Both the position numbers and the translations under genes were made by a program. Below, piece by piece: positions 13,202 to 34,017 of a stretch of 64,000 nucleotides of DNA. How positions within the stretch are numbered: position 1 is the first letter of the stretch; each line of letters begins with the position of its first letter. The DNA lies in the NCBI GenBank assembly GCA_903832055.1, contig CAILAC010000012.1, positions 84,991 through 148,990 on the forward strand. Reading direction: 5' to 3'. Source of the DNA: an uncultured Acidobacteriota bacterium. GTDB lineage: Bacteria > Acidobacteriota > Terriglobia > Terriglobales > Acidobacteriaceae. The notes below the pieces were generated by a model, which was not told the origin of the DNA, ran no database searches, and saw nothing but the letters and a program-made list of their open reading frames with translations.

Positions 13202-13223
13202 CCTTGCTTCAAGGGGGACACAG

Positions 13224-13625: not shown

Positions 13626-13683
13626 GTTGCTGAAGGCGTTTGCCAAATCTTCCCCGACGCAGTTAGGCGCACTAGAATTAGGT

Positions 13684-14727: not shown

Positions 14728-14808
14728 AGCTTCAGTGCGCTCCCACGTTCGTGCGCTGGACACTGGAAGCTGATGGTGCGTTATGATGTGCTCAGGAGGA
14801 GTCCCCCC

Positions 14809-15021
14809 ATGTCCGAATCCGAAGCATCCACCCCTATTGAAACCAGCAACAATACACTACGCGCTATCGGGTGGGTCTCGCTCGGTGTCGGCATTGCCGC
14901 AGTGGGCATTGTTGTGGGCCGCGAACTCCGCAAGCGGTATCAGTTCAACCACCGCACTCCGTATGATTTCTATGCCAATGCCGGGACGCAGGCTGCGTCT
15001 GAGTTTGGCATGGGGGTGTAG
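14809..15021 (+). CDS. small single-TM protein (70 aa)
   Basis: ATG 14809 is preceded by AGGAGGA (14794-14800) with about 8-nt spacing. One hydrophobic helix: AIGWVSLGVGIAAVGIVVG. Confidence 0.5.
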   Translation: MSESEASTPIETSNNTLRAIGWVSLGVGIAAVGIVVGRELRKRYQFNHRTPYDFYANAGTQAASEFGMGV

Positions 15022-15592: not shown

Positions 15593-15614
15593 GGCAGCAC
15601 CTTCGTTACGAAAG

Positions 15615-17645
15615 CTAGAGTTCAGTCGAGCGGGATCGGACCAGCTCCTGGGATTTGGCAATGAAGTCGGCAACAGAAATTGACCCCTGGTCGCCTTTGG
15701 CTCGGGTGCGAACGCTGACGGCGTGGGCCTCAGCTTCCTTGTCGCCCATGACGAGGATGTAAGGGGTTTTCTGATTGGCAAAGTCGCGGATCTTGCCGTT
15801 CATCTTTTCGTTGCGGCTGTCGATTTCTACGCGGAATCCGGCCGCCTCCAACTCGGCTTTGACCTGGTTGGCGTAGTCGTGGTGGCGTTCGCTGATGGGA
15901 ACGAGGCCGATCTGGAGGGGAGCAAGCCAGAGCGGGAAGGCTCCGGCATAGTGCTCAATGAGCACGCCGAAGAAGCGCTCAACCGAGCCGAAGAGGGCGC
16001 GGTGGACCATGACGGGCTGGTGGCGCTCGCCATCTTCGCCCACGTATTCGAGCTCAAAGCGGGCGGGCAGAGTGAAGTCAAACTGGACCGTCGAGAGCTG
16101 CCAGAGACGGCCGAGCACGTCGACCAGCTTGAAGTCGATCTTGGGGCCGTAGAAGGCGGCTTCGCCGGGGATGGTCTTGTAAGGGATGTTTTTGCTCTTG
16201 AGAGCGCGCTCGAGGGAGCCGATGGCGAGCAGCCAGTTTTCGTCACTACCGGCGTATTTGGCGCGGTTGGCGGGGTCCCAGATGCTGAGCTCGACCTTGA
16301 ATTCTGCAAAACCAAAAGTCTTGAGGACGGCCTCGGCAAACTCGATGCAGCCGATGGCCTCTGACTCGATCTGCCCCGGCGTGCAGAAGATGTGAGCGTC
16401 GTCCTGGGTAAAGCCGCGGACGCGCAGCAGGCCGTGCATGGTGCCGGAGCGCTCGTAGCGATAGACGTTGCCGAGTTCGGCATAGCGGACGGGCAGGTCG
16501 CGGTAGCTCTTGGGGGTGTTTTTGTAGATGAGGATGTGGAAGGGGCAGTTCATCGGCTTCATGCGATAGTCTGCGTCGTCCAGCTCCATCGGGGTGAACA
16601 TGTTTTGCGAGTAGTAGCCCTCGTGTCCGGAGATTTTCCAGAGATCGACGCGGGCGACGTGGGGGGTGTTGACGAGGGAATAGCCGCGGCGGATGCACTC
16701 GTCTTTCATCCAGTCTTCCATGATCTTGCGAATCATGGCTCCTTTGGGATGCCAGAAGATGAGGCCGGGGCCGGCCAGCTCCTGAATGCTGAAGAGGTCG
16801 AGCTGCCTGCCGAGCAAGCGGTGGTCGCGGCGGGCGGCCTCTTCAAGCCGGGCGAAGTGGGCGTCCATCTCTTTTTGCGAGAAGTAGGCGGTGCCGTAGA
16901 TGCGCTGGAGCTGAGGGTTCTTTTCGTCGCCGAGCCAGTATGCTCCGGCGAGGTTGGTGACCTTGACGGCTTTGACGCGGCCGGTGGAGGGAACGTGGGG
17001 GCCGCGGCAGAAGTCAAGGAAGCTGCCGTTGCGGTAGAAGCTGACCTGGTCGCCGGGTTGAGTGAACTTGGTGACGAAGTGGGTCTTCATGAAGTCGCCG
17101 TCGTGCTCGAAGGTGGCGAGGGCTTCTTCGCGCGGCGTGGCTTCGCGGGTGAATTTCTCATCACGGGCGACGACTTCGGCCATTTTGGCTTCAATGGCCT
17201 TAAGGTCGTCGGGGGTGAAAGGCTTTTCGCGGAAAAAGTCGTAGAAGAATCCCTGATCTGTGGCAGGGCCGTGGCCGAGCTTGGTCTCAGGAAAGAGCTC
17301 AAGGACAGCGGTGGCCATGACGTGGGCGGCTGAGTGGCGGACGACTTTGAGGGCCTCGGGATCGTTCTCTTTGATGAGCGCGAGGTGGGTGTCTTCAGTG
17401 AGCGGAGTGGTCAGGTCAACGAGGCGCGGGCCGGCAGCGGCGGCCGAGTACATGGCAGCGTCAGAGTCCTCTTCGATTTCCGATGCGGCAGCCTGAGTGG
17501 CGGCAACCGGCGTGATGCGCGCTACGACGCAGGCGGCGGCGAGGCGCGGGGAAATGGAGGTGGCGATGTCAAGCGGCGTGGTGCCGATCGGCACTTCGCG
17601 GATGGCCCCGTCGGGGAGATGGATGGCGATTGTCTGCGTGCTCAT
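15615..17645 (-). CDS. thrS: threonine--tRNA ligase
   Basis: ATG at 17645-17643 (MSTQTIAIHLPDGAIREV, TGS domain). Class II aaRS core (FWHPKG, RGFTQDDAHIF, YGPKIDF) and a C-terminal anticodon-binding domain. Confidence 0.95.
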   Translation of the reverse strand: MSTQTIAIHLPDGAIREVPIGTTPLDIATSISPRLAAACVVARITPVAATQAAASEIEEDSDAAMYSAAAAGPRLVDLTTPLTEDTHLALIKENDPEALKVVRHSAAHVMATAVLELFPETKLGHGPATDQGFFYDFFREKPFTPDDLKAIEAKMAEVVARDEKFTREATPREEALATFEHDGDFMKTHFVTKFTQPGDQVSFYRNGSFLDFCRGPHVPSTGRVKAVKVTNLAGAYWLGDEKNPQLQRIYGTAYFSQKEMDAHFARLEEAARRDHRLLGRQLDLFSIQELAGPGLIFWHPKGAMIRKIMEDWMKDECIRRGYSLVNTPHVARVDLWKISGHEGYYSQNMFTPMELDDADYRMKPMNCPFHILIYKNTPKSYRDLPVRYAELGNVYRYERSGTMHGLLRVRGFTQDDAHIFCTPGQIESEAIGCIEFAEAVLKTFGFAEFKVELSIWDPANRAKYAGSDENWLLAIGSLERALKSKNIPYKTIPGEAAFYGPKIDFKLVDVLGRLWQLSTVQFDFTLPARFELEYVGEDGERHQPVMVHRALFGSVERFFGVLIEHYAGAFPLWLAPLQIGLVPISERHHDYANQVKAELEAAGFRVEIDSRNEKMNGKIRDFANQKTPYILVMGDKEAEAHAVSVRTRAKGDQGSISVADFIAKSQELVRSRSTEL

Positions 17646-20884: not shown

Positions 20885-23155
20885 ATGCTTCAAACTCAAG
20901 TTCTTCGACTGTCCATTCTCGCCCTTGCTCTCTTCGCTGGCCTGCTGGCAGAGGCGCGGGTGTCGCCGGTTCCGGTGCCGCAGGAGTTGCGATCCACTGA
21001 ATATACGGTGCTGATCGATGGCAAGCTGGTCGACGTTGCGCATGCGGCTGCAAGTTATGACTACGTCAGCATTGAATCGACAGGGCCGGTGAAGGTCAGT
21101 ATCACGGCTGCGGAGAAGGACTTCTGGGCGACAGGGGTGGATATTCAGCCGTGGCGGCTGGGGATTCGGCCAACGCGGGTGGGCAATACAATCGAGTTTC
21201 GGCTGAACTTTGACGCAGACCGGCCGGTAAAGCTTTCCATCACGAGGCCTGGGGACTTTCTCAATCATGCAAAGATGCTGTTCTTCTTCATGTCGCCGCC
21301 TGTGGCTCCGCCGCCGACAACTCCGGACGGGTTCTTTCATTTTGTTGCTCCGGGGGTGCACCGCGAGAGCCTGAACCCGAAAAGCGGCGAGACCTGGTAC
21401 CTGGCGCCGGGTGCGGTAATCTTTGGCAGCCTCAACCTGTGGCGGGTCAACCATGTCAACGTTGTCGGCCGGGGCGTGATCGTGTACGACGGGCCCCAGA
21501 ACCCCGAGGATGATGATGGTTGGATGCAGAAGCCGGACTGGCACTGCATTGGGGCGCTGGAGGCGCATCATATTCACATCAGCGGCGTGACGTGCCTGGT
21601 GCGCAGCCGCACGTGGTCAGTTCAGATGAAGGACTCGACCGACTTTGTCTACGACGACCTGCGGGTAATTGGCGGCAATCCTGGCAATGCCAATCAGGAC
21701 GGAATGGATTGGCTCGGAGGCGGCGACGCAGTGGTGAGGGATTCGTTCTTTCGAGCCTCGGATGACGTGTTTGCCATGCAGGGCAACTGGGATGGCTACG
21801 AGCATGCCAAGCTAGTGACGCCGGGCGAGGATGTCTCGAATATCACGGTGGAGCACAGCGTGCTCTCGACCAGCATCTCAAACATCGTGCGCGCTGGATG
21901 GCCCGAGAAAACCTTCAATTCGCACAACTTTACCCTGCGCGACTCAGACATACTGCACAGCGGTATCGGCTCATGCGGGCCACCGTTTGCGCTGTTTACG
22001 TATTGGGGAGACAAGGGGACAAAGGGCAATCACTTCGGGTATACCTTTGAAAATCTGTGGCTTGACGACTGGTACTCGCTCTTCCAGATTGAGCAGGATG
22101 AGGCCCGGCTGCATGACTTCATCTTCAAAAATATCTGGGCCTTTGATCAGCCGCCGCTGGTTGGCTCGCGGATCAACGGCCCGGTGAAGGATGTTCGCAT
22201 TGAAAATGTAAAGGTCGGCCAGGCGGTCGCTGATTCAAACGCAAAGCTGCGCCTTGAGCTTGCCGGCAACGCGCCGCAGCCTGCGTATGCGCCGGTAGAC
22301 CGCTGGGTTCATGCGGAGTTTCATGTGACGCCAGCGGTGCTGACGCCTGGAGTGGCGGCGGAATTCAGCGCAGACTCGGTAACCAGCCCCCATGCCCGTT
22401 ACACCTGGCTCTTTGGGGATGGAACTACGGCCCAGGGCCAGCATGTGCGGCACCGCTTCACGGACGCGCTGGGCACAGCGCTCGATGGAACGGAAGCGAT
22501 AGGTGCCGGGCGGTTCAGAGTGCTGCTGCGGGTGGAAGACAACGCCGGCAACCAGGACTGGGCCAGCCAAAGCGTGGTCGTAGTGAGCCGCTGGCATGAG
22601 GCTGCCGCGTTGAAGCCGGGCGCGGGCGGCGTGGGCGGCGACAAGGTTGAGATGGAGCCGGGATTGACGTATTCAATCTACCCCGGCAGTTGGCCGGAGT
22701 TGCCGGAATTAGGAAATGAAACGCCGACCTTCCATGATGTCGCAAGCGACCTGGCAGATGTATATTCCGGGGGATTTACCCGATTTGCAGTGACCTATGA
22801 CGGCTTCATCGATGTTCCGGCCGATGGCGGCTACAGCTTTCATCTGATGGAGCGGGACGGGGCGCGGCTGCGGATTGACGGTGATCTATTGGTACAGACG
22901 GGGCCACCGTTTGCTGAGGTTTGCGGCTCTCCGGTCAATGCAGTGCGCTATGCCCGGGGGGCCATCGGGCTGCGTGCCGGCAGGCATAGTCTGCATATTG
23001 AGGCACTCGAATCGATGAGCCCCGGCCATCCACATCTGCTGTGGGAGGGGCCGGGCATTGGCCTTGCGGACGTTCCCGCCCGGGCCTTGAGCCATCAGAC
23101 TGGCACCACCCGGCTGACGAAGCAGGGCGCGCCAATCAGCACCATTGAACCCTAG
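20885..23155 (+). CDS. secreted beta-helix glycoside-hydrolase-like protein with PKD and PA14 domains
   Basis: Signal peptide MLQTQVLRLSILALALFAGLLAEA. NQDGMDW..DAVVRDSFFRASDDVFAM resembles the catalytic Asp region of GH28/GH49-type beta-helix folds. PKD-like segment YTWLFGDGTTAQG...RVEDNAGN. PA14-like segment GLTYSIYPGSW...YDGFIDVPADGGYSFHL..DGARLRIDG. Confidence 0.75.
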   Translation: MLQTQVLRLSILALALFAGLLAEARVSPVPVPQELRSTEYTVLIDGKLVDVAHAAASYDYVSIESTGPVKVSITAAEKDFWATGVDIQPWRLGIRPTRVGNTIEFRLNFDADRPVKLSITRPGDFLNHAKMLFFFMSPPVAPPPTTPDGFFHFVAPGVHRESLNPKSGETWYLAPGAVIFGSLNLWRVNHVNVVGRGVIVYDGPQNPEDDDGWMQKPDWHCIGALEAHHIHISGVTCLVRSRTWSVQMKDSTDFVYDDLRVIGGNPGNANQDGMDWLGGGDAVVRDSFFRASDDVFAMQGNWDGYEHAKLVTPGEDVSNITVEHSVLSTSISNIVRAGWPEKTFNSHNFTLRDSDILHSGIGSCGPPFALFTYWGDKGTKGNHFGYTFENLWLDDWYSLFQIEQDEARLHDFIFKNIWAFDQPPLVGSRINGPVKDVRIENVKVGQAVADSNAKLRLELAGNAPQPAYAPVDRWVHAEFHVTPAVLTPGVAAEFSADSVTSPHARYTWLFGDGTTAQGQHVRHRFTDALGTALDGTEAIGAGRFRVLLRVEDNAGNQDWASQSVVVVSRWHEAAALKPGAGGVGGDKVEMEPGLTYSIYPGSWPELPELGNETPTFHDVASDLADVYSGGFTRFAVTYDGFIDVPADGGYSFHLMERDGARLRIDGDLLVQTGPPFAEVCGSPVNAVRYARGAIGLRAGRHSLHIEALESMSPGHPHLLWEGPGIGLADVPARALSHQTGTTRLTKQGAPISTIEP

Positions 23156-23540: not shown

Positions 23541-23594
23541 TAAAAAAATCAGGCCCTGGACGGAGAGCTACTCCGCCCAGGGCTTTTGAGTTTT
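23541..23594. terminator. bidirectional intrinsic terminator between convergent genes
   Basis: Hairpin GCCCTGGaCGGAGagctaCTCCGcCCAGGGC (23553-23583). It is followed by ttttgagtttt on the + strand and by tgattttttta on the - strand. Confidence 0.75.
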
Positions 23595-24957
23595 ATCTTC
23601 CTGCGGTGGATGGCGTGCCGCCTTCGGCAGGTTCCAGGTCGAGGCGGGCGCGTTCGCCATTGATGAGCACGACGCCGGCGTCGATCAACTGCTGGCCGGT
23701 GCAGTCGTAGGCCTCGTAGCGGCGCAGGGCTTCCATGGGAAAGAAGAATTCGACAGACAATGGCGCTGCCACGGGTACGCCGGGCTTTGCGCGTCCGCGT
23801 ACGGTGGTGCTGAAGCTGATGCCGTCAAAACCCTGATCGCCAGGAAAGTAGCCGAGAACGCGGCGAATGAGCGGCGAGATGTGTTCGTCAAATGCCAGGG
23901 CAGCCGCCTTGTAGCGGGAGATGCCCTGCGGTTCTGCGAGTGCCGTGGTCATCGACAGTTCGAGATACACCTGATGACGGAATGGAATGAAGGCAGGCGG
24001 CGCGTAGGTGACGAAGTGCGCTGCCGGCTCGAGTTCCTTGAGCATGTGATTGCTGACGCCTTGAATGGAGGTCTGCAAAACGGCGAGCGCCTGCGGCGAT
24101 GTGTCGCGCGCGGGCGGTGGGGTTGGTGCGGGAGCGACGGGCTGGGCTGTAGACGGCGTGACCGGGGCGGCGGCTACATACTGGGGCCGCGCTGCACTCT
24201 GCTCTGTGGCTGGCGGGACTTGAGTGGCAGGGACTTGAGCGGCTGGGGGGGGCGCGCTCGCGAGCACCGTCGGCGGGGCCTCAGGCTGGCCCGGCTGCTC
24301 TTCGTCGGTAAGCCAGAGGCTCAGCTGATTGGCATTGAGAAAGACTTCGGCGTCGACAATCGCGGCCTGCTCAGCGAGATTGCTCTGCGCGGACATCAGC
24401 CGTTTGGCGGCTGTCTGCGGAAAGTAGACCATCAGGTTTTCTGGCCGCTCGATGGGCATGCCCATGGTTTTGGAGACAACATGATGCGAAACTTCGATTG
24501 CGTATCCCTGCACCGCAGCGTTGTTTTGAAACGCCGGAACTGCAGCCTTGAGGATGGGCAGCACCACAGAGATAAAAGTCTCCTTGGCGCGCTGTTCGCT
24601 GGTGAATTTGTCGGAAGCATAGGCGCCGTAGTAATTGCCTGAGATGGCGAGGACGGTTGCGCCGTTGTAGCGCTCGAAGCGAATCGAGTGCTGGTCTGAG
24701 CGCTTCTGCGCCCTCTCATCGATATCGAGCTTGCGGCTGAAGTAGAACGGGAAGTTGAAGTGATGTGCGGCGATGTTTTGGCCGATCACGTTCAAATCGT
24801 TCATCGAGCGCTGCTGCAATGCGCGAATCTCAGAGTCTTGAATCTCAACTGGAGAAACGACCTGTGCGATAGCAATGGGCGTTGCAAAGCCCATAAGAAT
24901 GATGCCCCAGAATACGAAGCCAGGAATAACTGCCCAGGCAGCCCTACTTATGCGCAT
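23593..24957 (-). CDS. hypothetical secreted two-domain protein with a Pro-rich linker (last gene of the cytochrome operon)
   Basis: Signal or anchor sequence MRISRAAWAVIPGFVFWGIILMGFATPIAIAQ. A central Pro/Ala/Gln-rich linker of about 80 aa. No motif I recognise. The start overlaps the upstream stop by 14 nt. Confidence 0.7.
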   Translation of the reverse strand: MRISRAAWAVIPGFVFWGIILMGFATPIAIAQVVSPVEIQDSEIRALQQRSMNDLNVIGQNIAAHHFNFPFYFSRKLDIDERAQKRSDQHSIRFERYNGATVLAISGNYYGAYASDKFTSEQRAKETFISVVLPILKAAVPAFQNNAAVQGYAIEVSHHVVSKTMGMPIERPENLMVYFPQTAAKRLMSAQSNLAEQAAIVDAEVFLNANQLSLWLTDEEQPGQPEAPPTVLASAPPPAAQVPATQVPPATEQSAARPQYVAAAPVTPSTAQPVAPAPTPPPARDTSPQALAVLQTSIQGVSNHMLKELEPAAHFVTYAPPAFIPFRHQVYLELSMTTALAEPQGISRYKAAALAFDEHISPLIRRVLGYFPGDQGFDGISFSTTVRGRAKPGVPVAAPLSVEFFFPMEALRRYEAYDCTGQQLIDAGVVLINGERARLDLEPAEGGTPSTAGR

Positions 24958-25696
24958 AAACCGTCCCTGCTGGCTGATACGGAGGATCAGCTAAAGCCCG
25001 AGTATAGGCGATGAGCGCCCGCACCTCCGCGAGGCTGAGAGTTTTTTCGTAGGGTGGCATCAATGCGGATCGCTTCAGCGCGGGGCCGCCGTACTGGATG
25101 ATTGCCGTTAGATCCGCGTCACTCATCTTGTTGAGAGTATTGCCGTCGGTGAAAGCGTGCGGCTTGGTTTCGAGGTTGTCGTAGTTGGAGACGCGCTCAG
25201 CGGATGACTCTGGATCGTGGCACCGGGTGCAGTACTTATCCGCGAGAATTGCGCCGAGACGCTGCTGATAGCCGAGAGCCGTCTCGATGACATCGAGCGA
25301 AGCCGGCTTTGCCTTGCCCGGTGTGACCGCGGTGAGCTGGTAGCGCCCGGCGATGCCGCCCAGGGTGACGGCGGTGGTGGCCTGGCCACTGGTGTCAGTA
25401 AGGGCCGCGGCAGGTTCAAAGCTGACGCCTGCGGGGCCTTGAAACTGGACCAGCGCTCCGGGAACGGCAGTGCCCTGCTCGTCATTGACCTGAACGACGA
25501 CCGGGTCTTTGAGCGCTGTGCCAGTGGCGCCGACCTGATGTCCACCACTTGTCTCGACGATGGCGGCTCCGGTGCCGGTGGGTTTGAGAGCTGCGTTGGG
25601 TTGGGTGCCTGACTTACATCCAGCAAGCGCGACGACGGCGAGGAGCGCCAGGCAAGCGGATGATCGCAAGACCTCAGTGTTGACTCGTTTCATCAT
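24944..25696 (-). CDS. lipoprotein with an Ig-like domain and a C-terminal class-I monohaem cytochrome c
   Basis: Lipobox LALAGC. Big-like segment DPVVVQVNDEQGTAVPGALVQF...TDTSGQATTAVTLG. One CXXCH (CTRCH) with a distal MPPY Met. ATGATGA overlap with the upstream gene. Confidence 0.85.
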   Translation of the reverse strand: MMKRVNTEVLRSSACLALLAVVALAGCKSGTQPNAALKPTGTGAAIVETSGGHQVGATGTALKDPVVVQVNDEQGTAVPGALVQFQGPAGVSFEPAAALTDTSGQATTAVTLGGIAGRYQLTAVTPGKAKPASLDVIETALGYQQRLGAILADKYCTRCHDPESSAERVSNYDNLETKPHAFTDGNTLNKMSDADLTAIIQYGGPALKRSALMPPYEKTLSLAEVRALIAYTRALADPPYQPAGTVYAHK

Positions 25697-27759
25697 TGCT
25701 TTGCTCCTTTTCCGCTTGTGCCTTTAAGCGACATGAGGAAGGCCGTCAATGCGCGGGCATCTTCGTCACTCATCTTCTGGTTGGGCTCTGCTGTGCCGGG
25801 GCGCAGCGCTTGCGGATTCTTGAGCCAGGCGTAGGTCCAGGCCGGAGTCAGACGTGAGCCGACCTGCGTCAGGGTGGGTCCGATGTAGCCCTTGTCAGTT
25901 TTGGTATCGACGATGTGGCAGGACTGGCATGCGAATTTGGAGTAGAAGAGTTGCCGCCCTTGCTCCACCACCTGTGGAGGATTGGTGGCTGACGGCGCGG
26001 TGTCGGGGTCGACGGCGGATGTCTGATAGACGGCGAGCATGAAATCCGTAAGTTCCTTGTTGTCGCTGTCAGAGAGGTTGAAGCGGGGCATGCGCCGGAT
26101 GAGCGATGGCCGCAGGGTATTGGGATTCTTGAGGAAATCGGTCAGCCACTGACGCTGAACGCTGCTGCCCTCGTAGGTCAGGTCAGGGGCCATGTCGCCG
26201 CCTCTGCCGTTGATCCGGTGGCAACTGAAGCAGGCGAGCTCGGTCATGAGCTTGCCGGCGTGGCCAGCGGGCTGGTAGTTGGTGTCTTCTGCAGCAGCGA
26301 CGCGCAGCGTGTCAGGAATTGTGCGGCTGCGGCCGGTCTGTGCGAGCAGGGCCGTAGTCAATGCATCGGTCTGCGCATTGGAAAGCGCGAACTGCGGCAT
26401 CTTCACCGCGCCACCGAAGGCACGCGGCTGGCGAATCTTGCTCACGATGTAAGTTGAAACCGTATGCTCCATGCCGGGTAGGAATGCGATCTGCGCAAGC
26501 GGCTTGCTGCCGATGGTGCTGAGATCGGGCGCGAAGTTCTGCGGTGTCTGCACGCCGTTGATCTCGTGGCAGGCGGCGCATCCGCCGTCGATGATAAGTC
26601 GGCGGCCACGGGCAATCTGCTGCGGTGTGGCCGCGGCAAGCTGCACGTTTGCGCCGTAATCTGCATCCGTCTTGCTGTGCAGATAGTCCGCCAGTGTGGC
26701 AATCTGCCGGGGCGTAAATCGGTAGTGCGGCATGGGCGTTGTGGCGTCGTAAATGCGCGGATTATTCAGCCACGCATTGAGCCATTCCGGCTTGACCTTG
26801 TTGCCGATGCGCGTCAGCTCAGGGCCAACGTCGCCACCGACAACATTGCCCGCCGCATTTTGAACTGCGTGGCAGGATGAGCAGAAGGATTGTCCATAAA
26901 GGCTCGCGCCATCAGCAGGATTGGTCGCCGACCCTGCCGAAGCATTCTTGACGCTTGCCGCTGAAGTATCGCCGGGCTGCGGTTTGCTTGAGCTGATAAG
27001 GTAAGCGGAAATATCGCTCGCGTCCTGATCGGTGAGCTTGTAGTTAGGCATCGTGGCAGTAGCCGCGTATGCCTGCGGGTCTTTGAGCCAGCTGTAGATC
27101 CACTCGCGTGTGGTCTTGTCGGCGACATGAACGAGTGACGGCGGATGATCGGTCGGCATCATCTTTGTGCCGTCGGGCCGCGTAACAGCGTGACATCGAA
27201 CGCAGCCGTAGCGCGCCAGCATCGTGCGGCCAAGATTCAACTGCGGAGTGCCGGCCATTGCGTTCTGATGGCATTGACCGCAACCTGCTTCAATATAGCG
27301 CGTGGGCAGGATGGGCGCTTCGCCATCGCGTTCGCTGTGGTGCGCCTCGGAGACGGTGGTGGCTGCCCCCTGACCGCCATGACAGATTACGCAGCCAAAT
27401 CCATCCACCGAATGTGGAATCGCCGGGTGCTTGCGAAATGGCTGCTGATGTTCGTCTGCCAGGCTGGCTTCGCTCAAGCCAAGATGACACGTAGTGCAGC
27501 GATCGACGACGCCCAGCTCGGGCATCCATATCTGGTGGATACCAGGCTCGAAGCGACGGCGCATGGAGACCGCGTCGCCGCGATCGCGAATCAACGATAG
27601 ATACTTGCGCTGATAGCTATGCCACTGGCTGAAGTGCTCCTTGGTGGGTGTGACAGCAAGCGCAAGCAGCAGAACAAGGCTGACAACGCCAAAGGCCCGC
27701 ACCGGATCGCCGAAGAGCGCTTGCCACGCAGAGGAAATGTATTTTCGTATGGATTGCAC
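25693..27759 (-). CDS. membrane-anchored octahaem c-type cytochrome
   Basis: Eight CXXCH motifs: CTTCH, CVICH, CGQCH, CVRCH, CSSCH, CAACH, CFSCH, CQSCH. N-terminal TM helix AFGVVSLVLLLALAV. GTG start at 27759 directly abuts the upstream TAA. Confidence 0.9.
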   Translation of the reverse strand: MQSIRKYISSAWQALFGDPVRAFGVVSLVLLLALAVTPTKEHFSQWHSYQRKYLSLIRDRGDAVSMRRRFEPGIHQIWMPELGVVDRCTTCHLGLSEASLADEHQQPFRKHPAIPHSVDGFGCVICHGGQGAATTVSEAHHSERDGEAPILPTRYIEAGCGQCHQNAMAGTPQLNLGRTMLARYGCVRCHAVTRPDGTKMMPTDHPPSLVHVADKTTREWIYSWLKDPQAYAATATMPNYKLTDQDASDISAYLISSSKPQPGDTSAASVKNASAGSATNPADGASLYGQSFCSSCHAVQNAAGNVVGGDVGPELTRIGNKVKPEWLNAWLNNPRIYDATTPMPHYRFTPRQIATLADYLHSKTDADYGANVQLAAATPQQIARGRRLIIDGGCAACHEINGVQTPQNFAPDLSTIGSKPLAQIAFLPGMEHTVSTYIVSKIRQPRAFGGAVKMPQFALSNAQTDALTTALLAQTGRSRTIPDTLRVAAAEDTNYQPAGHAGKLMTELACFSCHRINGRGGDMAPDLTYEGSSVQRQWLTDFLKNPNTLRPSLIRRMPRFNLSDSDNKELTDFMLAVYQTSAVDPDTAPSATNPPQVVEQGRQLFYSKFACQSCHIVDTKTDKGYIGPTLTQVGSRLTPAWTYAWLKNPQALRPGTAEPNQKMSDEDARALTAFLMSLKGTSGKGAKQ

Positions 27760-28464
27760 TTAACTCCTCCAGGGCAAAACCCAGGACCAGCCGGGGCCGC
27801 GAAACCATGTACCCACAGCAGTGAGCACAATCAATTCAAAGAGAAACCACGTCATGATCCAGTAGGCAAATGGCTTCGAAGCAAGGTAGCGACGCCACCG
27901 CGAAGGTGACTCCAGCGTGCTGTTGGCGCCGATGAACATCGCGATAGCAACAATCACCGTTGGCGCAACCGCAACATAGACATCGAAGAACACTAGAAAC
28001 GCAAGCAATCCAGCTGTTGCAACGTAAAAGATATTCAGGCGCTTTGTGCGGTCTTTTAGAAACAGGCCCTGCGCCTCAATGTTGATGTTGAAGTATGGAA
28101 TGACGATCAACGAGACGATGAGCATCGTCGGCACGAGCACCCCCGCGACAACGGGCGGGAAGTAATGCAGCAGCTCTTGCAGGCCGAGGAAATACCACGG
28201 TGCCTTGGCGGGGTTGGGCGTATGCGTCGGGTCAGCTATGCCTTCGAGAGGTGCATTGAAGAACAGCGAGATGACAACCAGCAGAATCGCCAGCAGCTCA
28301 ATCGCAAGTGCTGCGCGAAAGAGCACGCCGGGATAAGTCTGCATCTGCTCTTCGCGAGCCACCTTGACCTGCGCACTGGTGCGGCGCGTGACAAAGACGA
28401 CTCGTGTCGGAGAGCGCCGCTGGTCTGAGTCAAGACCAGCGATGAAATCTTTTGGAGTGCTCAT
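27760..28464 (-). CDS. cytochrome b C-terminal part (b6f subunit-IV-like, extended)
   Basis: [20 protein letters not shown] aligns with the PEWYF Qo-site segment of subunit IV / cytochrome b. About 5 hydrophobic helices. ATGA overlap with the cytochrome b6-like gene. Confidence 0.85.
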
Positions 28465-29249
28465 TTCGTCTCCTTCGCCGGGAGTGGTGGTGCGGCGGCA
28501 GCCTGTGCCCTGGGCTCAGACTGCTGCACATACAGCCCGCCATCTTTGCGAATACGCCAGAAGTGAATGGCGATGAAAACAATCGCGGTCAGTGGCAGTA
28601 CGACACAGTGCAGTACATAGAAGCGGAGCAATGCGTTTGCGTTAACCTGATTGCCGCCCAGTAACAGGAAGTGAATCTTGCTGCCGACAATCGGCACTGC
28701 GGATGAAATATTCGAGCCAACTGTAATAGCCCAGAATGCCAGCTGGTCCCACGGAAGCAGATAGCCGGTGTAGCTGAGCAATAAAGTAATCAGCAGCAGC
28801 ACAATGCCGATGACCCAGTTGAATTCGCGCGGTGTGCGATAGGCGCCGCGATAGAAGACCTTGAACATGTGCGCAAAGACGAGAAAGACCATCAGCTGCG
28901 CCGACCAGCGATGCAGGTTTCTCAGAAAAAGTCCTGACGAAACAACAAACTGCAGGTCCTTCATGTCGGCGTATGCCTGCGGCACTGAAGGGTGGTAATA
29001 CAGCATGAGCAGAATGCCGGTGACCACGAGGATAAGAAATGTGCCCAGCGTGAGTGTGCCGAGATACCAGGTTGAACTGAAGCTCACCATGCGCTTGCGC
29101 ACTTTGGTTGAGAAGAGGTGAAGGAATACATTCTGCTGAATCGCAAGCGCGCGATGCAGAGTGCTGTTGCCGCTGCCGCTGCGAAAGACTGAGCGCCACA
29201 CGCGGCTGCCGCGAACTTGTTCAATGATTTGATCGGTCTTCGTGGTCAT
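28461..29249 (-). CDS. cytochrome b N-terminal part (b6-type)
   Basis: Haem ligand pairs H-x13-H ([18 protein letters not shown]) and H-x14-H ([25 protein letters not shown]). ATG 29249 lies 2 nt after the Rieske stop; the ORF-track start 29255 is a TTG overlapping it. Confidence 0.9.
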
Positions 29250-29251
29250 GC

Positions 29252-29743
29252 TCAAACCCTCAAGTACTGCAGCGCGGGGACGTTGATGGAGCGATCGACC
29301 ATGAGATTGCCCTCATCGCTGACCCAGACCTTGAGCCATGGCAAGGGCTTGGGCGCGGGGCCTTCAATCTTCTCGCCGGTGCGCTTGAACTTGCTGCCGT
29401 GACAGGGACAGGTGATCATGCCGAGGTCCTGATTCCATGTGGTCAGGCAACCGAGATGGGTGCATATCGCGCCAATTGCGAAGAAGCCCTCTTCTGCGCG
29501 AATGGTGTAGATTCCGGCGTTCACGTCCATGCTCACCAGGCCCACGGGAAAGCTCTCGGGTCTGCCTGCATTGACGATTGACGACGGCTCGTAGAGCACA
29601 TTGGGTGAGAGATAGTTGTATGAGAAAACAGCTGTGCCGGCAGCAGCGATGCCCAGCGATCCCAACCCTACCTTGGTGAAGAACGCTCTTCGGTCGAAGC
29701 TATCGGCCGAGGGTGTCGTTCCTATCTGTTTCAACTCGTGCAT
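29252..29743 (-). CDS. Rieske [2Fe-2S] protein with a twin-arginine signal/anchor
   Basis: Tat motif [20 protein letters not shown]. Cluster boxes CTHLGC and CPCHGS. Confidence 0.93.
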
Positions 29744-29746: not shown

Positions 29747-31729
29747 TTACCTCGCGATCGCGCCGGCTGCGAGCGGTTTCGCGCGCAGAGGGCCGTCGAT
29801 AGATTCAAGAGAAATTAAGCCGGTGGGATCCACTGAAAAAATGTTGTAAGACTCCATCGTGATGGTGCCCGCTGGACAACGCGCTGCGCAGAGGCCGCAG
29901 CGAATGCAACGAGACTCATCCTTGAGCATCGCGGAGCCGGTGATGACACCTAGTTCGTCTGCCTGAATGTCATCCAATTCGACACCGAGCAGGTCGCGTA
30001 CATTGCCTAACTGCGTGGTTGTTTCTTCATCAAATGAAATGCGTTCGAGCGATACGAGTTCGAGGCAGCTCTCGGGGCATACGTCAACGCAGCCACCGCA
30101 GAGAATGCACTCGGTTGCATCTTCTGAATTGCCCTCAAAGACAGTGTTGACCCAGCAGTGGAGGCAGCGTTGCGCCTCTGCCATTGCAGACTCAGCATCG
30201 AATCCAATCTCCACTTCAGTCACGCCGGTGCGGCGCTTGAGTGGCTGCATTGGGATGGCTGGGCGTGTCTTGTCGAGCAAGTCGAGGGGCATGTGATAAC
30301 GCTCCATGACTTCGACTTCGATAACTGGATCGGGGTGTTTGGTGCCGCGCAGATACTCATCAATCCCGACGGCTGCGCGCTTGCCATCAGCCACGCTGTC
30401 GATGATGAGTCGCGGGCCAAAGACGCAGTCGCCACCAGCGAAGACTCCAGGTGCTGAAGTCATCAACGTCTGCGGATTCACAGCGACCAATCCGCGCGGG
30501 GAAACTCCAACTCCGTCTTCAGGAGTCAGGAAAGTTAGATTCGCTGCCTGACCGATGGCCATGATGATGGTGTCGCATTCGAGCAGGGTTTCGCTGTTCT
30601 CAAAGAAGGTCGGATTGAAGCGCCGGTTCTCATCGAAAACTGATTTGGTCTTGAGCACTTCGAGCCCGATGGCGTGCCCGTCTTTACCGACAATCTGCTT
30701 GGGACCAAAGCCGGCATGGATGATGATGCCTTCTTCGACTGCCTCATCAATCTCTTCGAGTGATGCGGGCATTTCAGCGCGATTTTCGAGGCAGACAAGG
30801 TGTACTTCCTGGGCACCGAGTCGCAGCGCAGAGAGCGAAACGTCCATCATTTCGCGCGCTGCGACAGCATCCACGCTGTCCTGCGTTGGTTCAAAGTTTT
30901 CGACTCCCGCTGCATGCTGCTTGAGCACTTCGCGAGCTGCTGAGCGGGCCACATCCATGGCGACATTGCCGCCGCCGATGACCAGTACCTTCTTGCCGAT
31001 GGTGAAGCGATAACCCAGATTCACGTTGAGCAGGAAGTCTATGCCCTTGTAAACACCATCGAGATTGACGCCAGGGATGGTGAGGTCGCGGCTGCGATGC
31101 GCGCCAACTGCAATGAGCACTGCATCGAATTTGCTGCGCAGATCGGCGATGGTAAAGTCGCGTCCGGCAGCACTGTTAAGTTTCAGCGTGATGTCGCCGG
31201 TGGCAAGGATTTCGCGGACCTGCGCCTCGACAACATCGCGAGGCAGGCGATACTCAGGCAGGCCCAGATAGAGCATGCCGCCTGCGACTTGTGAAGCCTC
31301 AAACAGAGTGACGGAGTAGCCCATCAGGCCCAGATCATGCGCTGCGGAAAGTCCTACCGGGCCTGCTCCAACAATGGCCACGCTGAGATTGAGTTTGGGT
31401 TGCAGACGGCCGGCGTTTACGTCAATTGGATTGCGCGACTCAGGGCCATGCTGCTCAGTGAGGAATCGCTTGAGTGCGCGGATGGCGATAGGCTTGTCAA
31501 TCTCACCGCGACGGCACGCAGTTTCGCAGGGATGTGCGCAGACGCGGCCGCAGATGCTGGCGAGCGGATTTGGTTCGCGCGCATAGCGATATGCGTCTTC
31601 GAAGTTACCCTCGGCGATCAGTTCTACATAGCGGCCCGCGTTGGTATGTGCGGGACAGGCCGTCATGCAGGGAAAGTTGGTGTTCAACCATTCCTGATCA
31701 ACCTTCTTGTTGATAAAGCGTTGCTGCAT
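29747..31729 (-). CDS. GltD-like NAD(P)H-dependent FAD/FeS oxidoreductase fused to a 2x[4Fe-4S] ferredoxin domain
   Basis: N-terminal Cys clusters (CMTACPAH..., CGRVCAHPCETACRRG). FAD fold VAIVGAGPVGLSAAHDL. NAD(P)H fold VLVIGGGNVAMDVARSA. C-terminal CILCGGCVDVCP and CIRCGLCAARCP. No signal peptide. The stop lies 3 nt before the Rieske ATG. Confidence 0.88.
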   Translation of the reverse strand: MQQRFINKKVDQEWLNTNFPCMTACPAHTNAGRYVELIAEGNFEDAYRYAREPNPLASICGRVCAHPCETACRRGEIDKPIAIRALKRFLTEQHGPESRNPIDVNAGRLQPKLNLSVAIVGAGPVGLSAAHDLGLMGYSVTLFEASQVAGGMLYLGLPEYRLPRDVVEAQVREILATGDITLKLNSAAGRDFTIADLRSKFDAVLIAVGAHRSRDLTIPGVNLDGVYKGIDFLLNVNLGYRFTIGKKVLVIGGGNVAMDVARSAAREVLKQHAAGVENFEPTQDSVDAVAAREMMDVSLSALRLGAQEVHLVCLENRAEMPASLEEIDEAVEEGIIIHAGFGPKQIVGKDGHAIGLEVLKTKSVFDENRRFNPTFFENSETLLECDTIIMAIGQAANLTFLTPEDGVGVSPRGLVAVNPQTLMTSAPGVFAGGDCVFGPRLIIDSVADGKRAAVGIDEYLRGTKHPDPVIEVEVMERYHMPLDLLDKTRPAIPMQPLKRRTGVTEVEIGFDAESAMAEAQRCLHCWVNTVFEGNSEDATECILCGGCVDVCPESCLELVSLERISFDEETTTQLGNVRDLLGVELDDIQADELGVITGSAMLKDESRCIRCGLCAARCPAGTITMESYNIFSVDPTGLISLESIDGPLRAKPLAAGAIAR

Positions 31730-31811
31730 GGGTGACCATCCGCGTCTGGGGAAGTGGGAGAAGGGGGAAGCGGGCGTGACTTCACGCCCGTTGAGTTACT
31801 TTTGAAGCGAC

Positions 31812-32393
31812 TTACTTTGAAAGCGTGAAGTCTGATGCAGTGTCGCCTGCAACCTTTACAGGATTCGACTTGGTCTTTGCACCCTCATGCCATGCGGTGA
31901 CGGTGTATGCGCCATCAGGAACGTTGTCGATCTTGTAGGCACCCGACTTATCAGTCTCAGCAAAGTAAGGCGTGGGCGAAACGATGATGTAAGCGGCCAT
32001 CTCAGGATGTACATTGCAGAGCAATGGCACAGCACCGGGGTTATCGAACTTGAAGCTCTGCTTCTGCCCCTGAGGCCATGTGCCGAGGTTGTGGCCAAGC
32101 TTCTTGTTACCGCTGATCGAAATCCAGAAGACGTTGTGCGCTACGCTGTCGCTGTTGAGGAATTCGACGGTCGTGCCTTGCTCAATGGCCACAAGGTGAG
32201 GCGTGAACATCAGGCCTTTTTGATCGATGACGATGTGCTGGGTGGGGGCGGGAAATGTCTTGCCGGGGATAGCTTCGACATAGACGACGGAGACGCCTGA
32301 GACGCCTGATACCTTGCCGTGGATGGTCCCTGCAACCGCTGCTGTGCTGAGTGCGGTAATCGCGATAAGTGTTGCCAGTGTGATGCGTTTCAT
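31812..32393 (-). CDS. secreted cupredoxin (amicyanin/plastocyanin-like) with a C-terminal CarboxypepD_reg-like beta-sandwich
   Basis: Signal peptide MKRITLATLIAITALSTAAVA. Candidate type-1 Cu ligands are His in SVAHNVFW and C-x2-H-x2-M in LLCNVHPEM. The tail YFAETDKSGAYKIDNVPDGAYTVTAWHEG is typical of CarboxypepD_reg-like folds. Confidence 0.8.
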   Translation of the reverse strand: MKRITLATLIAITALSTAAVAGTIHGKVSGVSGVSVVYVEAIPGKTFPAPTQHIVIDQKGLMFTPHLVAIEQGTTVEFLNSDSVAHNVFWISISGNKKLGHNLGTWPQGQKQSFKFDNPGAVPLLCNVHPEMAAYIIVSPTPYFAETDKSGAYKIDNVPDGAYTVTAWHEGAKTKSNPVKVAGDTASDFTLSK

Positions 32394-32433: not shown

Positions 32434-34017
32434 CTAGTAGACGAACTCCAGCCCGGTGACGAGTACGTTTGTTCGGAAGGGATTGCCAATAGCTGCACCC
32501 GTGGATGGGTTGTAGACAATCTGCTGGGGCTGAATCTGGTACTCAACCGACGCCTTGATGTTGGCGTGGATGAGGAACTGCTCGCCGAGCGTGAAGCGAT
32601 TGCGCGTTGCCCGGTATGGCGAGAAGAAGGAAGACGACGGTGGAGCCGTTGGGTCGTACATAAGGAAGTTGACCCGATCAGCAGTTGACTTGACCTGATC
32701 CCAGCGCACGATGCTCATGGCCCAGGGCAGCGCAAGATAGTCAGCCTCAAGGAAACTGCCGCTGAATGTAACTGCAGCCTCAGGCTTGAAGCCGGTGATG
32801 GCACCACTTTCGACAGTGGATTCAGGCACAAGGTTGTGATCGTGGGCTGCCATGTACACACCAAACAAATTGAATGTTCGGTAGTTAAAGTTGACGTCGC
32901 CGCCGATGCGGTAGAACGGCTCACGCGCGGTGAGAACGACTGGGGTCACACCGTCGGCCAGGACACCAGACACAGTCTGTACGCTGCGACCGTAGAAGCC
33001 AAAGGTTCCTAGCGCCAGGAAGGTGTGATCACGCGGACCGGAAGCACCAGCAGCCTGAACGCCGTTGCGGCTTTCCGGATTTTTTTCAAGGTTGAAGCGA
33101 TAAATGAATCGGCCGTAGATGTCTTTGTAGTTGGAGTCGGAACTGAATGCGACTCCATTACCCGGCTTGACCGTGGGCGCTGTAGGAGCTGCACCGCTGG
33201 TGTTTTGATTCATGACCGCGAGAGAGTAGTGGTAGCCCTGGTAGGAGTGCCCTCCGCTGATTTCAAGCCCGTGTGCAGCACTCGAAATCGACGCCCCGTT
33301 GTTGACAAATTCAGGCCGTCCAATGCCATTCTGGACGCCGATATTCGCCTCGCCGAAGAGGTCCCAACCGCTGAGGTTCCAGGAGCGTGCCTGACTGAAC
33401 GGGATATCCAGTTCAAACTGACCAAAGCGCAAGTTCACTGAGTCTGTGGGCATTTTGAGGAATCGGCTGACGTCGTGAAATTTGAGGTACGCATCGCCCA
33501 ACGCGCCGTTGGCATTCGCACCGGCGACGCTGATGTCGTCGTCAACCCAGAAGGAGATACCGGTTCCGAAATTGCCCGCCGTAAAGATACTGAAAAGTCC
33601 TGGTTGAAAGTCAGATTTGGGGACAAATGTACCAATAGTTCCGGCAGGCAGAACCTGGTTGAAGTTGTTCCGGCTGGAGCCAACCTGCTGGTAGAACTGG
33701 TTGTAGCGCAAGCCAATCGGCGGCAGGCCGGGAATGGTGCCGGGATATACCGTGTGCGGAAATAACTCGGCCTGTGCCGGTGCTCCAAGGAGAATTGGCG
33801 GAGCCTTGAGAAAGGACTCGTCATCCTTGGGAAACTTGAAGCCTGCATCCTTGAATGCCTTGCCGAAGTCATTGAGCTTTGGGAAGTCCAGGTGGCAGGT
33901 GGTGCAGGATGTACCGTACTGACGGGAAAACGCGGGAATCGCTCGACTCGTTTGCGGAAGCAAAAGAACCGTCAGTGCAGCGACAAAAAGGATTCGGGAA
34001 AGCCATTTTCGATTCAT
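32434..34017 (-). CDS. outer-membrane beta-barrel-like protein with one N-terminal CXXCH (fused cytochrome-porin architecture, Cyc2-like)
   Basis: ATG 34017 (MNRKWLSRILFVAALTVLLLPQTSRA signal peptide). CTTCH lies 11 residues into the mature protein (IPAFSRQYGTSCTTCHLDFPKLNDFGKAFK). About 480 aa of alternating amphipathic strands, rich in Gly/Tyr/Phe/Asn, follow. The C-terminus ...VTGLEFVY ends in an aromatic residue, as in OMPs. Confidence 0.8.
   Translation of the reverse strand: MNRKWLSRILFVAALTVLLLPQTSRAIPAFSRQYGTSCTTCHLDFPKLNDFGKAFKDAGFKFPKDDESFLKAPPILLGAPAQAELFPHTVYPGTIPGLPPIGLRYNQFYQQVGSSRNNFNQVLPAGTIGTFVPKSDFQPGLFSIFTAGNFGTGISFWVDDDISVAGANANGALGDAYLKFHDVSRFLKMPTDSVNLRFGQFELDIPFSQARSWNLSGWDLFGEANIGVQNGIGRPEFVNNGASISSAAHGLEISGGHSYQGYHYSLAVMNQNTSGAAPTAPTVKPGNGVAFSSDSNYKDIYGRFIYRFNLEKNPESRNGVQAAGASGPRDHTFLALGTFGFYGRSVQTVSGVLADGVTPVVLTAREPFYRIGGDVNFNYRTFNLFGVYMAAHDHNLVPESTVESGAITGFKPEAAVTFSGSFLEADYLALPWAMSIVRWDQVKSTADRVNFLMYDPTAPPSSSFFSPYRATRNRFTLGEQFLIHANIKASVEYQIQPQQIVYNPSTGAAIGNPFRTNVLVTGLEFVY

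Follow-up and report, generated by a model that had tools for sequence, protein, structure and literature searches.

A predicted NAD(H)-binding iron-sulfur flavoprotein encoded with a Rieske/cytochrome b complex in an uncultured acidobacterium

Rieske/cytochrome b complexes with a nicotinamide adenine dinucleotide (phosphate), NAD(P), oxidoreductase subunit were described for anammox bacteria, with Kuste4569-4574 and Kustd1480-1485 of Kuenenia as the respective gene sets (Kartal 2011/2013, de Almeida 2016, Hauser 2025). The flavoprotein subunit reportedly co-migrates with these complexes, and AlphaFold3 models contain an iron-sulfur (FeS) path to the b haems (PMC12954380, PMC5600118). An NAD-linked cytochrome b complex is therefore an already known kind of system, published for anammox bacteria in 2011-2013 and followed in the literature up to 2025. 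Whether such a complex performs quinol-based bifurcation to NAD(P)+ has been debated since the anammox genome papers. Here we describe a flavoprotein gene with the same neighborhood in an uncultured member of the Acidobacteriaceae. It is located on the minus strand of a 64,000-nt stretch of contig CAILAC010000012.1 (assembly GCA_903832055.1; this whole stretch is called the window and all positions refer to it), directly in front of the genes for a Rieske protein and a split cytochrome b. In our favored reading, to which we assign a probability of about 0.5, the protein is the cytoplasmic NAD(H)-binding subunit, with flavin adenine dinucleotide (FAD) and FeS clusters, of an APWY-type Rieske/cytochrome b complex that bifurcates electrons from quinol as in the anammox proposal.

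For the anammox complexes, Rieske potentials of +303 mV (Kuste4569) and +335 mV (Kustd1480) were measured by Hauser et al. 2025. In their AlphaFold3 models there are four FeS clusters, the one nearest to FAD with a buried Lys, and a five-helix subunit IV (SUIV). An unexpected b haem is modelled as well; His43/His62 of the two cytochrome b monomers hold it, and an Arg/Lys where helix D ends is close by (His43/Arg247, His62/Arg266). The template for Kuste4570 was 9bp5, the sequence of which is identical to that of 9bov. An association of NAD(P) oxidoreductases with planctomycete operons and "many other cases" was noted by Dibrova et al. 2017, together with the expression of such complexes in Kuenenia; the cytochromes b form "subfamily G" (Dibrova et al. 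2013, 2017). Kao & Hunte 2014 defined a multi-phylum, uncharacterised "APWY clade" with Rieske proteins predicted to be of Mid+ (S-F) to high potential. In a genome paper on peat Acidobacteria these genes are booked as an ordinary two-component bc1 "pet operon".

Translation, Pfam and a motif scan bore out what the preliminary description of the window had read from its letters, a 660-residue open reading frame (ORF) with N-terminal Cys clusters, FAD and NAD(P)H folds and two CxxCxxCxxxCP motifs, both of which are exact. Cys residues occur at positions 21, 25, 60, 64, 68 and 72 of the N-terminal cluster domain and further at 522, 525, 541/544/547/551, 555 and 608/611/614/618. The nucleotide folds are marked by GAGPVG at 121 and GGGNVA at 252. 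The claimed lack of a signal peptide was confirmed as well, since the hydropathy scan returned no 19-residue hydrophobic window, no transmembrane (TM) segment and no signal-peptide-like N-terminus. The stop codon TAA (29749-29747) is separated by CGC from the Rieske ATG at 29743, exactly the 3 nt that had been described, and a GAGG Shine-Dalgarno-like motif precedes this ATG within the 3' end of the flavoprotein gene. Pfam assigned Fer4_20 to residues 18-94 (1.6e-22), Pyr_redox_2 to 116-449 (1.6e-29) and a Fer4_7/Fer4 dicluster to 541-621, and the top NCBIfam model was the generic PRK12771 "NAD(P)-binding protein" (456.8 bits). In the homolog search, E <= 1e-20 was obtained for 7991 of 8000 scored candidates, well outside what chance would give. 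The best 120 of these 8000 are 81-94% identical, almost all of them 660 residues long, and their named sources are Terracidiphilus, Ca. Sulfotelmatomonas and other metagenome-assembled genomes (MAGs) of the Acidobacteriaceae.

The term GltD-like, used in the preliminary description, holds in so far as an FeS flavoprotein of the GltD/NfnB type is present; NfnB/StnC-like is the better name. The top sequence matches among solved structures were NfnABC (9bov_A, 9n5u_A) and StnABC (8oh5_C), followed by NfnB (4ylf_B, 5jca_L), GltD and dihydropyrimidine dehydrogenase (DPD), with phmmer E-values of 2.5e-75 (4ylf_B) and 7.6e-72 (5jca_L) for NfnB. An AlphaFold2 model built with 26 diverse homologs reached a mean predicted local distance difference test (pLDDT) of 82.4 and a predicted TM-score (pTM) of 0.83; weak regions are residues 1-7, 270-304 (pLDDT < 50), 576-595 and 637-660. 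Foldseek aligned the full chain to 9bov_A, 8oh5_C and 9n5u_A over 663-692 columns with a query TM-score (TMq) of 0.65. For NfnB the target TM-score (TMt) was 0.79-0.80, in agreement with the NfnB fold that houses two [4Fe-4S] clusters and FAD. Judged by sequence, the closest relatives are the NfnB-like modules of the bifurcating NfnABC/StnABC enzymes and not GltD proper. The GltD/GltA models remained far below their cut-offs (TIGR01318 237 vs 483, TIGR01317 195 vs 448, TIGR01316 312 vs 472), as did those of AegA and YgfK. The annotations GltD, formate dehydrogenase beta, DPD and DsrL were rejected on cut-offs and gene context.

Proximal and distal clusters as well as FAD and nucleotide domains are shared with NfnAB, NfnABC and StnABC. 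Residues 489-525 match the N-terminus of NfnB and follow the flavin domain, an order also seen in 9bov_A, 9n5u_A and 8oh5_C, with further ferredoxin-like clusters behind them as in NfnABC and StnC. By alignment, C522 and C525 complete both NfnB-type clusters through this identical circular permutation. A fifth cluster made of C522, C525 and C555 was considered and rejected, because the permutation makes C522 and C525 the first two Cys of the NfnB motif. C555 itself, right behind the first ferredoxin motif (CPESC), is kept in 67 of 74 family copies and superfluous for the four predicted clusters. Lys87 takes the place of NfnB Glu117, the fourth ligand of the proximal cluster, in the residue-level alignment to 4ylf_B, and is invariant in both homolog alignments (A1/A2). 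Each of the 16 main cluster Cys is conserved in 69-74 of the 74 locus copies (see below); R521, C522 and C525 were found in all 74, the eight ferredoxin-domain Cys in 73-74 each. The protein is thus predicted to carry the ligands of four FeS clusters, two in the permuted N-terminal domain and two in the C-terminal ferredoxin domain. Different from the Nfn and Stn enzymes are, besides Lys87, the missing partner genes of NfnA/HydBC type, the lack of a C-terminal formate-dehydrogenase-like domain and the predicted partner, a membrane-bound cytochrome b complex.

A further difference concerns the nucleotide site. In NfnB, Y310-R311-R312 (YRR) holds the 2'-phosphate of NADPH (PMC7596348). C313-L314-E315 stands at this place in the window protein, with E315 in 74/74 and L314 in 71/74 locus copies (family pattern [C/S]-L-E). 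Because of this replacement, and by analogy with the enzymology of DsrL-1, NAD(H) rather than NADP(H) is predicted as substrate. Of the earlier assignment "NAD(P)", the nucleotide-binding fold therefore stands, and the specificity should probably be narrowed to NAD(H). DsrL-1A, which favors NAD(H), likewise lacks YRR and has an insertion of ~32 residues in the nucleotide domain. The corresponding insertion measures 27-47 residues in most phyla of the flavoprotein family and 2-9 in Planctomycetota/Brocadiales.

With DsrL the flavoprotein also shares its size of ~650 residues and the linear order N-terminal ferredoxin / FAD-NAD / linker / C-terminal ferredoxin domain (PMC7596348), and the C-terminal ferredoxin domain of DsrL docks onto its partner. 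As DsrL is soluble, the flavoprotein could also be a stand-alone enzyme that is merely co-transcribed, namely an NAD(P)H:ferredoxin or NAD(P)H:acceptor oxidoreductase of the NfnB/DsrL/GltD type or a formate dehydrogenase beta subunit. The missing TM segment, the occurrence of dsrL elsewhere in peat Acidobacteria and database names such as "formate dehydrogenase beta subunit" (some JGI annotations) or "glutamate synthase beta subunit-like" would fit. This explanation is nevertheless quite improbable. Apart from the model scores given above, no gltB, nfnA, dsrAB or fdhA gene was found in the operon or the examined flanks, and no dsr gene among the neighboring ORFs scanned (~15.6-42.5 kb of the window). 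Unlike dsrL, the window gene is unlinked to dsrAB/dsrC; it takes the first two cluster Cys from the permuted segment, and its predicted partner is membrane-bound. The reported co-migration of the anammox homologs with the membrane complex argues in the same direction, as does the gene neighborhood.

In the window the flavoprotein gene is the first of seven, followed by those for the Rieske protein, split cytochrome b, a SUIV-like protein, an octahaem cytochrome c, a lipoprotein cytochrome c and a family-less protein; the spacing among the seven is -14 to +3 nt. For comparison, full-length relatives with 40-58% identity were collected by an exhaustive profile-free search, and ten of them were aligned for a scan of one genome per GTDB species. 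This gave 80 loci with 10-kb flanks (L001 and following), the six-frame ORFs of which were searched with the window proteins. Within the Acidobacteriota the loci stem from Terriglobia, Bryobacterales, Vicinamibacterales, Blastocatellia, Holophagae and Thermoanaerobaculia. Outside they are assigned to Verrucomicrobiota, Calditrichota, Eisenbacteria, Bacteroidota, Myxococcota, Victivallales, Zixibacteria, Actinomycetota, Nitrospirota, Chloroflexota, Omnitrophota and Planctomycetota including one Brocadiales genome, with the proviso that taxon labels of MAGs can be wrong. Rieske and cytochrome b genes immediately downstream on the same strand were found in 71 of the 75 loci with sufficient downstream DNA, in at least 15 phyla. 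Of the other four, three have both genes elsewhere in the locus and one is a short contig without either. When starts were assigned by a simple codon heuristic, the median distance to the next gene was 3 nt, and 65 of the 71 loci had <=30 nt. An adjacency confined to this genome, which the preliminary description had named as a refutation, is hence not what was found, and the near-zero gaps across phyla are not expected for a stand-alone enzyme.

Four operon types can be distinguished: a nine-gene form in Terriglobia; flavoprotein - Rieske - long cytochrome b - multihaem cytochrome c in most phyla; flavoprotein - cytochrome b - SUIV - Rieske in Actinomycetota and Chloroflexota; and flavoprotein - Rieske - cytochrome b - SUIV - hexahaem - octahaem cytochrome like hydroxylamine oxidoreductase (HAO) in Brocadiales, matching the composition of Kuste4569-4574. 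The partner genes on the positive (p-) side differ while the flavoprotein stays, as seen from the HAO-like protein in L082, CcoNO in L055 and a multi-cupredoxin in L049. Two paralogous kuste4569-74-like operons stand in tandem on one contig of L082, a Brocadiales MAG (398-7677 and 9857-16912). In L055 (Blastocatellales, 3522-11887) the order is Rieske, long cytochrome b, heptahaem cytochrome c, CcoN, CcoO, flavoprotein, so that a cbb3-type oxidase is embedded in the gene string; a similar layout was seen in L073 (Holophagaceae). The same nine genes were recovered from two other starting points, a cytochrome b homolog (Acidisarcina MAG) and a flavoprotein homolog that is 81% identical and has other flanks. 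In a protein search with cytochrome b, the relatives returned were all >=78% identical and little was gained.

Distances of flavoprotein and cytochrome b are correlated (Mantel, r = 0.93 for 70 loci; r = 0.75, p = 0.001 for 22 representatives with < 60% mutual identity), at least as tightly as those of cytochrome b and Rieske protein (0.89 for all loci, 0.59 for the 22 representatives). Flavoprotein similarity follows the operon type and not the host taxon, and Acidobacteriaceae hold both the split-cytochrome b form and a 48%-identical long-cytochrome b form (L033-L037). Linkage and co-divergence fit a co-evolving module and are no proof of contact. The co-divergence of r = 0.75-0.93 speaks against a merely co-transcribed enzyme. 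Linkage by itself would also be compatible, without anything more specific, with an indirect service to the complex, for example as redox sensor or regulator or as maturation or repair reductase for haems or FeS centres. We regard such a role as highly improbable: the four-cluster wire, the FAD site and the nucleotide site are invariant across at least 15 phyla, the translational coupling to the structural genes looks stoichiometric, and by Pfam and NCBIfam the protein is unlike known maturation factors. Taken together, the flavoprotein is very probably a subunit of the Rieske/cytochrome b complex.

The cytochrome b may provide a link to the b haem of the anammox models. In an HMMER alignment to b6 (6rqf_I/1vf5_A) the four haem-ligand His, paired in helices B and D, are kept. 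Most of the 53 matched cytochrome b sequences with a solved structure lack anything comparable to the N-terminal extension. It bears His46, a candidate ligand of an extra b haem on the negative (n-) side, as predicted from sequence. This His is missing from spinach b6 and from the flavoprotein-free cytochrome b of L016; a clade-specific invariant His on the cytoplasmic face of cytochrome b again speaks against a soluble enzyme. A conserved pair R236-K237 is present as well, and the His-to-R/K spacing is 201-202 in Brocadiales L082 vs 204 in Kuenenia. Because Cys35 of b6 is replaced by Tyr64, haem cN is predicted to be absent from the window complex. The corresponding column holds Cys in only one of 73 linked cytochromes b, the Brocadiales copy. 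Covalent haem cN (CxGG motif in cytochrome b), which is part of the Kuenenia models, marks the anammox subgroup and not the wider clade.

With canonical bc1/b6f complexes the window shares the dihaem cytochrome b with four His ligands and the Rieske boxes, CTHLGC (box I) and CPCHGS-x-F (box II, Ser-Phe type); the linked Rieske proteins are of Ser-x-Phe/Tyr type in essentially all loci, with Tyr in a few. Different are the octahaem cytochrome c after SUIV, in place of c1 or f, and the flavoprotein before the Rieske protein. SUIV has four hydrophobic stretches, one of them fit for two helices, which gives ~5 helices as an estimate from hydropathy only. The motif APWY of the quinol-oxidizing Qp site (residues 88-91, bases 28192-28203) was found in 71 of 72 loci. 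As an aside, L016 contains, just upstream of its nine-gene cluster, a second Rieske/cytochrome b pair (4566-7360; Rieske CACHNGIY, no NxFLH extension) followed by a nine-haem cytochrome.

Judged from these sequences, the window flavoprotein is orthologous in kind to Kuste4570 and Kustd1483. It is 39% identical over residues 6-629 to the kuste4569-74-like copy of Brocadiales L082. Shared with the anammox complexes are the four FeS sites, the Lys at the proximal cluster (K87 vs the buried Lys of Kuste4570/Kustd1483), the template 9bov/9bp5, [C/S]-L-E for YRR, a split b6-type cytochrome b with a conserved and probably equivalent N-terminal His, an enlarged SUIV, APWY, a Ser-Phe Rieske protein as in Kustd1480 and a multihaem cytochrome c replacing cytochrome f/c1. 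The window differs in Tyr64 vs the haem cN Cys and in an insertion of 34 residues in the NAD domain. On the p-side an octahaem cytochrome with four class-I domains and a Big_1/cytochrome c lipoprotein are found, in contrast to the hexahaem cytochrome and HAO-like enzyme of anammox bacteria. Cupredoxin and haem-porin-like genes lie upstream, and the host is a peat/soil acidobacterium without anammoxosome. Subfamily G and the APWY clade share the short cytochrome b co-occurring with a large Cys-rich NAD(P)-binding oxidoreductase, the APWY motif, a Rieske protein predicted to be of Mid+ to high potential, a patchy multi-phylum spread suggesting lateral transfer and the lack of a biochemically characterised member. 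The nine-gene form of Terriglobia, the invariant His and the YRR replacement are undescribed in those parts of the texts on these groups that were available to us.

Table 1. Features of the flavoprotein locus in the window (all on the minus strand)
Feature	Position	Strand	Size or residues	Basis or remark
Flavoprotein ORF, cytoplasmic FAD/NAD(H) iron-sulfur type	29747..31729	minus	660 aa	ATG start; ORF and translation
DPD-II/NfnB-type N-terminal domain, two FeS clusters	31448..31678	minus	residues 18-94	Pfam; alignment to T. maritima NfnB 4ylf_B
FAD and NAD(H) Rossmann domains	30383..31384	minus	residues 116-449	Pfam, motifs, alignment to NfnB
Variable insertion in NAD-binding domain, low-confidence	30833..30931	minus	~residues 267-299	model and locus copies
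Circularly permuted segment ...AEAQRCLHC	30155..30265	minus	residues 489-525	alignment to NfnB residues 6-42
C-terminal 2x[4Fe-4S] ferredoxin domain with low-confidence internal loop	29852..30121	minus	residues 537-626	motifs, Pfam
Rieske [2Fe-2S] protein, twin-arginine signal DRRAFFTK	29252..29743	minus	163 aa	Pfam, NCBIfam
b6-type four-helix cytochrome b, ~29-residue N-terminal extension	28461..29255	minus	262-264 aa	Pfam Cytochrome_B 4.8e-46
Codon of His46 of cytochrome b, motif N42-x-F-L-H46-x4-K/R	29118..29120	minus		His in 73/73 linked copies
Codon of Tyr64 of cytochrome b, at b6 haem cN Cys35 (CLGG -> YLGT)	29064..29066	minus		HMMER alignment to 6rqf_I/1vf5_A
SUIV-like membrane protein	27760..28464	minus	234 aa	Pfam Cytochrom_B_C; start overlaps cytochrome b stop, 4 nt
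Membrane-anchored octahaem cytochrome c	25693..27759	minus	688 aa	eight CxxCH, N-terminal TM; Pfam Cytochrom_C x5, Cytochrome_C7
Lipoprotein, Big_1 Ig-like domain and one class-I cytochrome c domain	24944..25696	minus	250 aa	conserved in Terriglobia-type operon
Last operon gene	23593..24957	minus	454 aa	N-terminal hydrophobic segment, long Pro/Ala/Gln-rich linker
Intrinsic-terminator-like hairpin, 13 bp (10 GC), then T run	23553..23583	minus		10 nt past last gene
Exported amicyanin-like cupredoxin (H...C-x2-H-x2-M) fused to CarboxypepD_reg-like domain	31812..32393	minus	193 aa	Pfam/NCBIfam
Exported protein, beta-rich, C-terminal ...GLEFVY	32434..34017	minus	527 aa	upstream accessory gene

All features are listed in Table 1. 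The TTG listed as the start of cytochrome b overlaps with the stop codon of the Rieske gene; for its relatives (262 residues) an ATG two codons later (29249) is called, 2 nt past the Rieske stop. In the octahaem cytochrome, four CxxCH belong to a c7/c3-like part and four to class-I cytochrome c domains. The last gene has no Pfam or NCBIfam family match and keeps its position in L001, L006, L007, L009, L015-L025, L051, L065 and L084. The hairpin behind it was taken as the end of the operon. Convergent with this end, a large secreted protein with PKD and PA14 domains is encoded on the plus strand (20885-23155), apparently without relation to the operon; the genes flanking the cluster (adenosine deaminase, glycosyltransferase, PA14/PKD protein) are unrelated. 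A promoter scan found fewer sites (2) than in shuffled controls (mean 4.1).

Two genes upstream of the flavoprotein complete the nine-gene form. The copper site of the cupredoxin reads His...C-N-V-H-P-E-M, and its fusion partner is a CarboxypepD_reg-like beta-sandwich. The cupredoxin is co-located in the Terriglobia-type loci and in several other phyla, and in the Terriglobia-type cluster its gene always lies between the flavoprotein gene and that of the 527-residue protein. The latter contains a single CxxCH directly behind the signal peptide (AIPAFSRQYGTSCTTCH) and is tentatively regarded as a candidate outer-membrane haem-porin, with an architecture like the fused cytochrome-porins Cyc2/Cyt572. 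It has no Pfam or NCBIfam match and every homolog is named hypothetical; an AlphaFold2 model with database homologs was too poor for a fold comparison (pLDDT 39). A 100% identical database entry is found on environmental contigs with the same gene order. The gene is again found beside those for flavoprotein, Rieske protein and cytochrome b in Terriglobia, and also in loci bearing the labels Eisenbacteria, Bacteroidota, Myxococcales and Omnitrophota. In L084/L085 (Acidisarcina sp. MAG, 1348-2835), a gene for a three-domain multicopper oxidase adjoins the haem-porin candidate on its upstream side. Between cupredoxin stop and flavoprotein start lies a GC-rich hairpin (31769-31792, 8-10 bp) with a C/U-rich tract behind it. 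Partial termination or processing at this site could divide the nine genes into 2 + 7, although the folding energy of the hairpin is unexceptional (no better than 13/200 shuffles, z = -1.6).

An outer-membrane porin next to a Rieske/cytochrome b module is known from the ExtOPQ(S) genes of the Geobacter cluster extHIJKLMNOPQS, which likewise includes multihaem cytochromes. The best matches of the window cytochrome b and SUIV are the ExtP (259 bits) and ExtQ (50 bits) models, both below the cut-offs. In contrast to the window, the Ext cluster has no flavoprotein, and the porin types are unlike.

According to the favored reading, bifurcation with NAD+ as low-potential acceptor, the ferredoxin domain would dock at the n-side of the cytochrome b dimer, a role taken over from the Kuenenia models, and the His46 pair of the dimer would bind the additional b haem there. 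The resulting electron wire would run from NAD(H) via FAD, four FeS clusters and this haem b to bN, bP and Qp. Such a direct FeS connection between cytochrome b and NAD(P)(H) had been proposed in the preliminary description; comparative genomics supports it, and we consider it rather likely, the wire itself still being inferred. Menaquinol, the host quinone being presumably menaquinone-8 (MK-8), would be oxidised at Qp. The first electron would travel over the mid/high-potential Ser-Phe Rieske protein and then over the octahaem and monohaem cytochromes until it reaches a high-potential sink. In Terriglobia this sink would likely be the cupredoxin and the outer-membrane haem-porin-like protein, elsewhere a cbb3 oxidase or an HAO-like enzyme. 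The second electron would reach NAD+ via very low-potential b haems.

The net direction from quinol to NAD+ can be given only tentatively, at slightly less than even odds and largely by analogy. It is favored because a Ser-type Rieske protein together with the presumed menaquinone implies a very low bP potential, because the quinone-reducing cofactor cN is dispensable in the flavoprotein-linked family, and because the p-side partners appear as interchangeable high-potential sinks. The same complex could also work in reverse, with the flavoprotein as NADH input and the FeS wire reducing the n-side haems or n-side quinone. NADH would then be the source of the "second electron" ("donor d") of Mitchell's original Q-cycle, and in a heterotroph the complex would work as a proton-motive oxidoreductase between NADH and cytochrome c (or cupredoxin/extracellular acceptor). 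The reaction would be strongly downhill, the predicted specificity is for NAD(H) rather than NADPH, and the host clade is organotrophic. Some loci encode a whole chain in one place (L055, CcoN/CcoO), and the haem-porin-like protein and cupredoxin of Terriglobia could take electrons outwards, with the porin next to the Geobacter ExtOPQ genes as a parallel. Membrane-anchored dehydrogenase ancestry of this sort was discussed by Dibrova et al. Still, we hold the reversed mode to be rather unlikely. The haem cN Cys, located in the quinone-reducing site of b6-type complexes, is missing in 72 of 73 members, and a Ser-type mid/high-potential Rieske protein with presumed menaquinone would be unneeded, while it fits bifurcation to low potential. 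Hauser et al. further argued that this mode wastes energy where NDH-1 exists, an argument that is weak for heterotrophs.

Several points weigh against bifurcation by a complex with the flavoprotein as subunit. Linkage and co-divergence are equally expected for any co-inherited operon, and the association of flavoprotein and complex in the acidobacterium is inferred from comparison of sequences. The 80 loci are the best-scoring flavoprotein relatives, so that the orthologous family was sampled and not all cytochromes b. The equivalence of His46 to His43/His62 of Kuenenia is probable and rests on position and spacing, without an alignment to the Kuenenia proteins. The terrestrial Acidobacteriaceae live mostly as organoheterotrophs that possess NDH-1 and alternative complex III (peat-Acidobacteria genome paper), and an obvious need for NADH from quinol is missing. 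Finally, the route from NADH to the b haems is downhill and would run unless n-side quinone reduction is blocked.

A more far-reaching interpretation, which we consider doubtful, is that the non-anammox members form a distinct class of Rieske/cytochrome b complexes, a linear quinol "bifurcase" without Q-cycle that in Terriglobia is hard-wired, as a nine-gene unit, to the cupredoxin and the outer-membrane haem-porin. The His46-ligated interface haem and the four-cluster wire to NAD+ would then replace haem cN and n-side quinone reduction. If true, the abundant "heterotrophic" soil and peat Acidobacteria would own a trans-envelope route from extracellular iron/humic redox chemistry to cytoplasmic NAD(H).

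Compared with the literature on the anammox complexes, new sequence-level observations are that the candidate extra-haem His is invariant throughout the family, that the cN Cys is lost almost universally outside anammox bacteria, that YRR is changed to [C/S]LE, which predicts NAD(H), and that specifically in Terriglobia the module is coupled to a cupredoxin and a haem-porin-like protein. So far, bifurcation from quinol was approached only in anammox enrichments, which are slow-growing and genetically intractable. The module of flavoprotein, Rieske protein and cytochrome b is widespread: Acidobacteriota, Verrucomicrobiota, Actinomycetota, Myxococcota and others have it, and its invariant cofactor ligands are the same in all of them. 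It would therefore serve respiration in general and would not be peculiar to anammox bacteria, and organisms that are easier to handle may be at hand for tests. Predicted are a preference for NADH over NADPH, the binding of a third b haem by His46, the absence of haem cN and, for the Rieske protein, a potential of ~+250 mV or higher. For soil Acidobacteria, surveys that book a "bc1/pet operon" would overlook an NAD-linked subunit in the cytoplasm and perhaps also a module for extracellular electron transfer.

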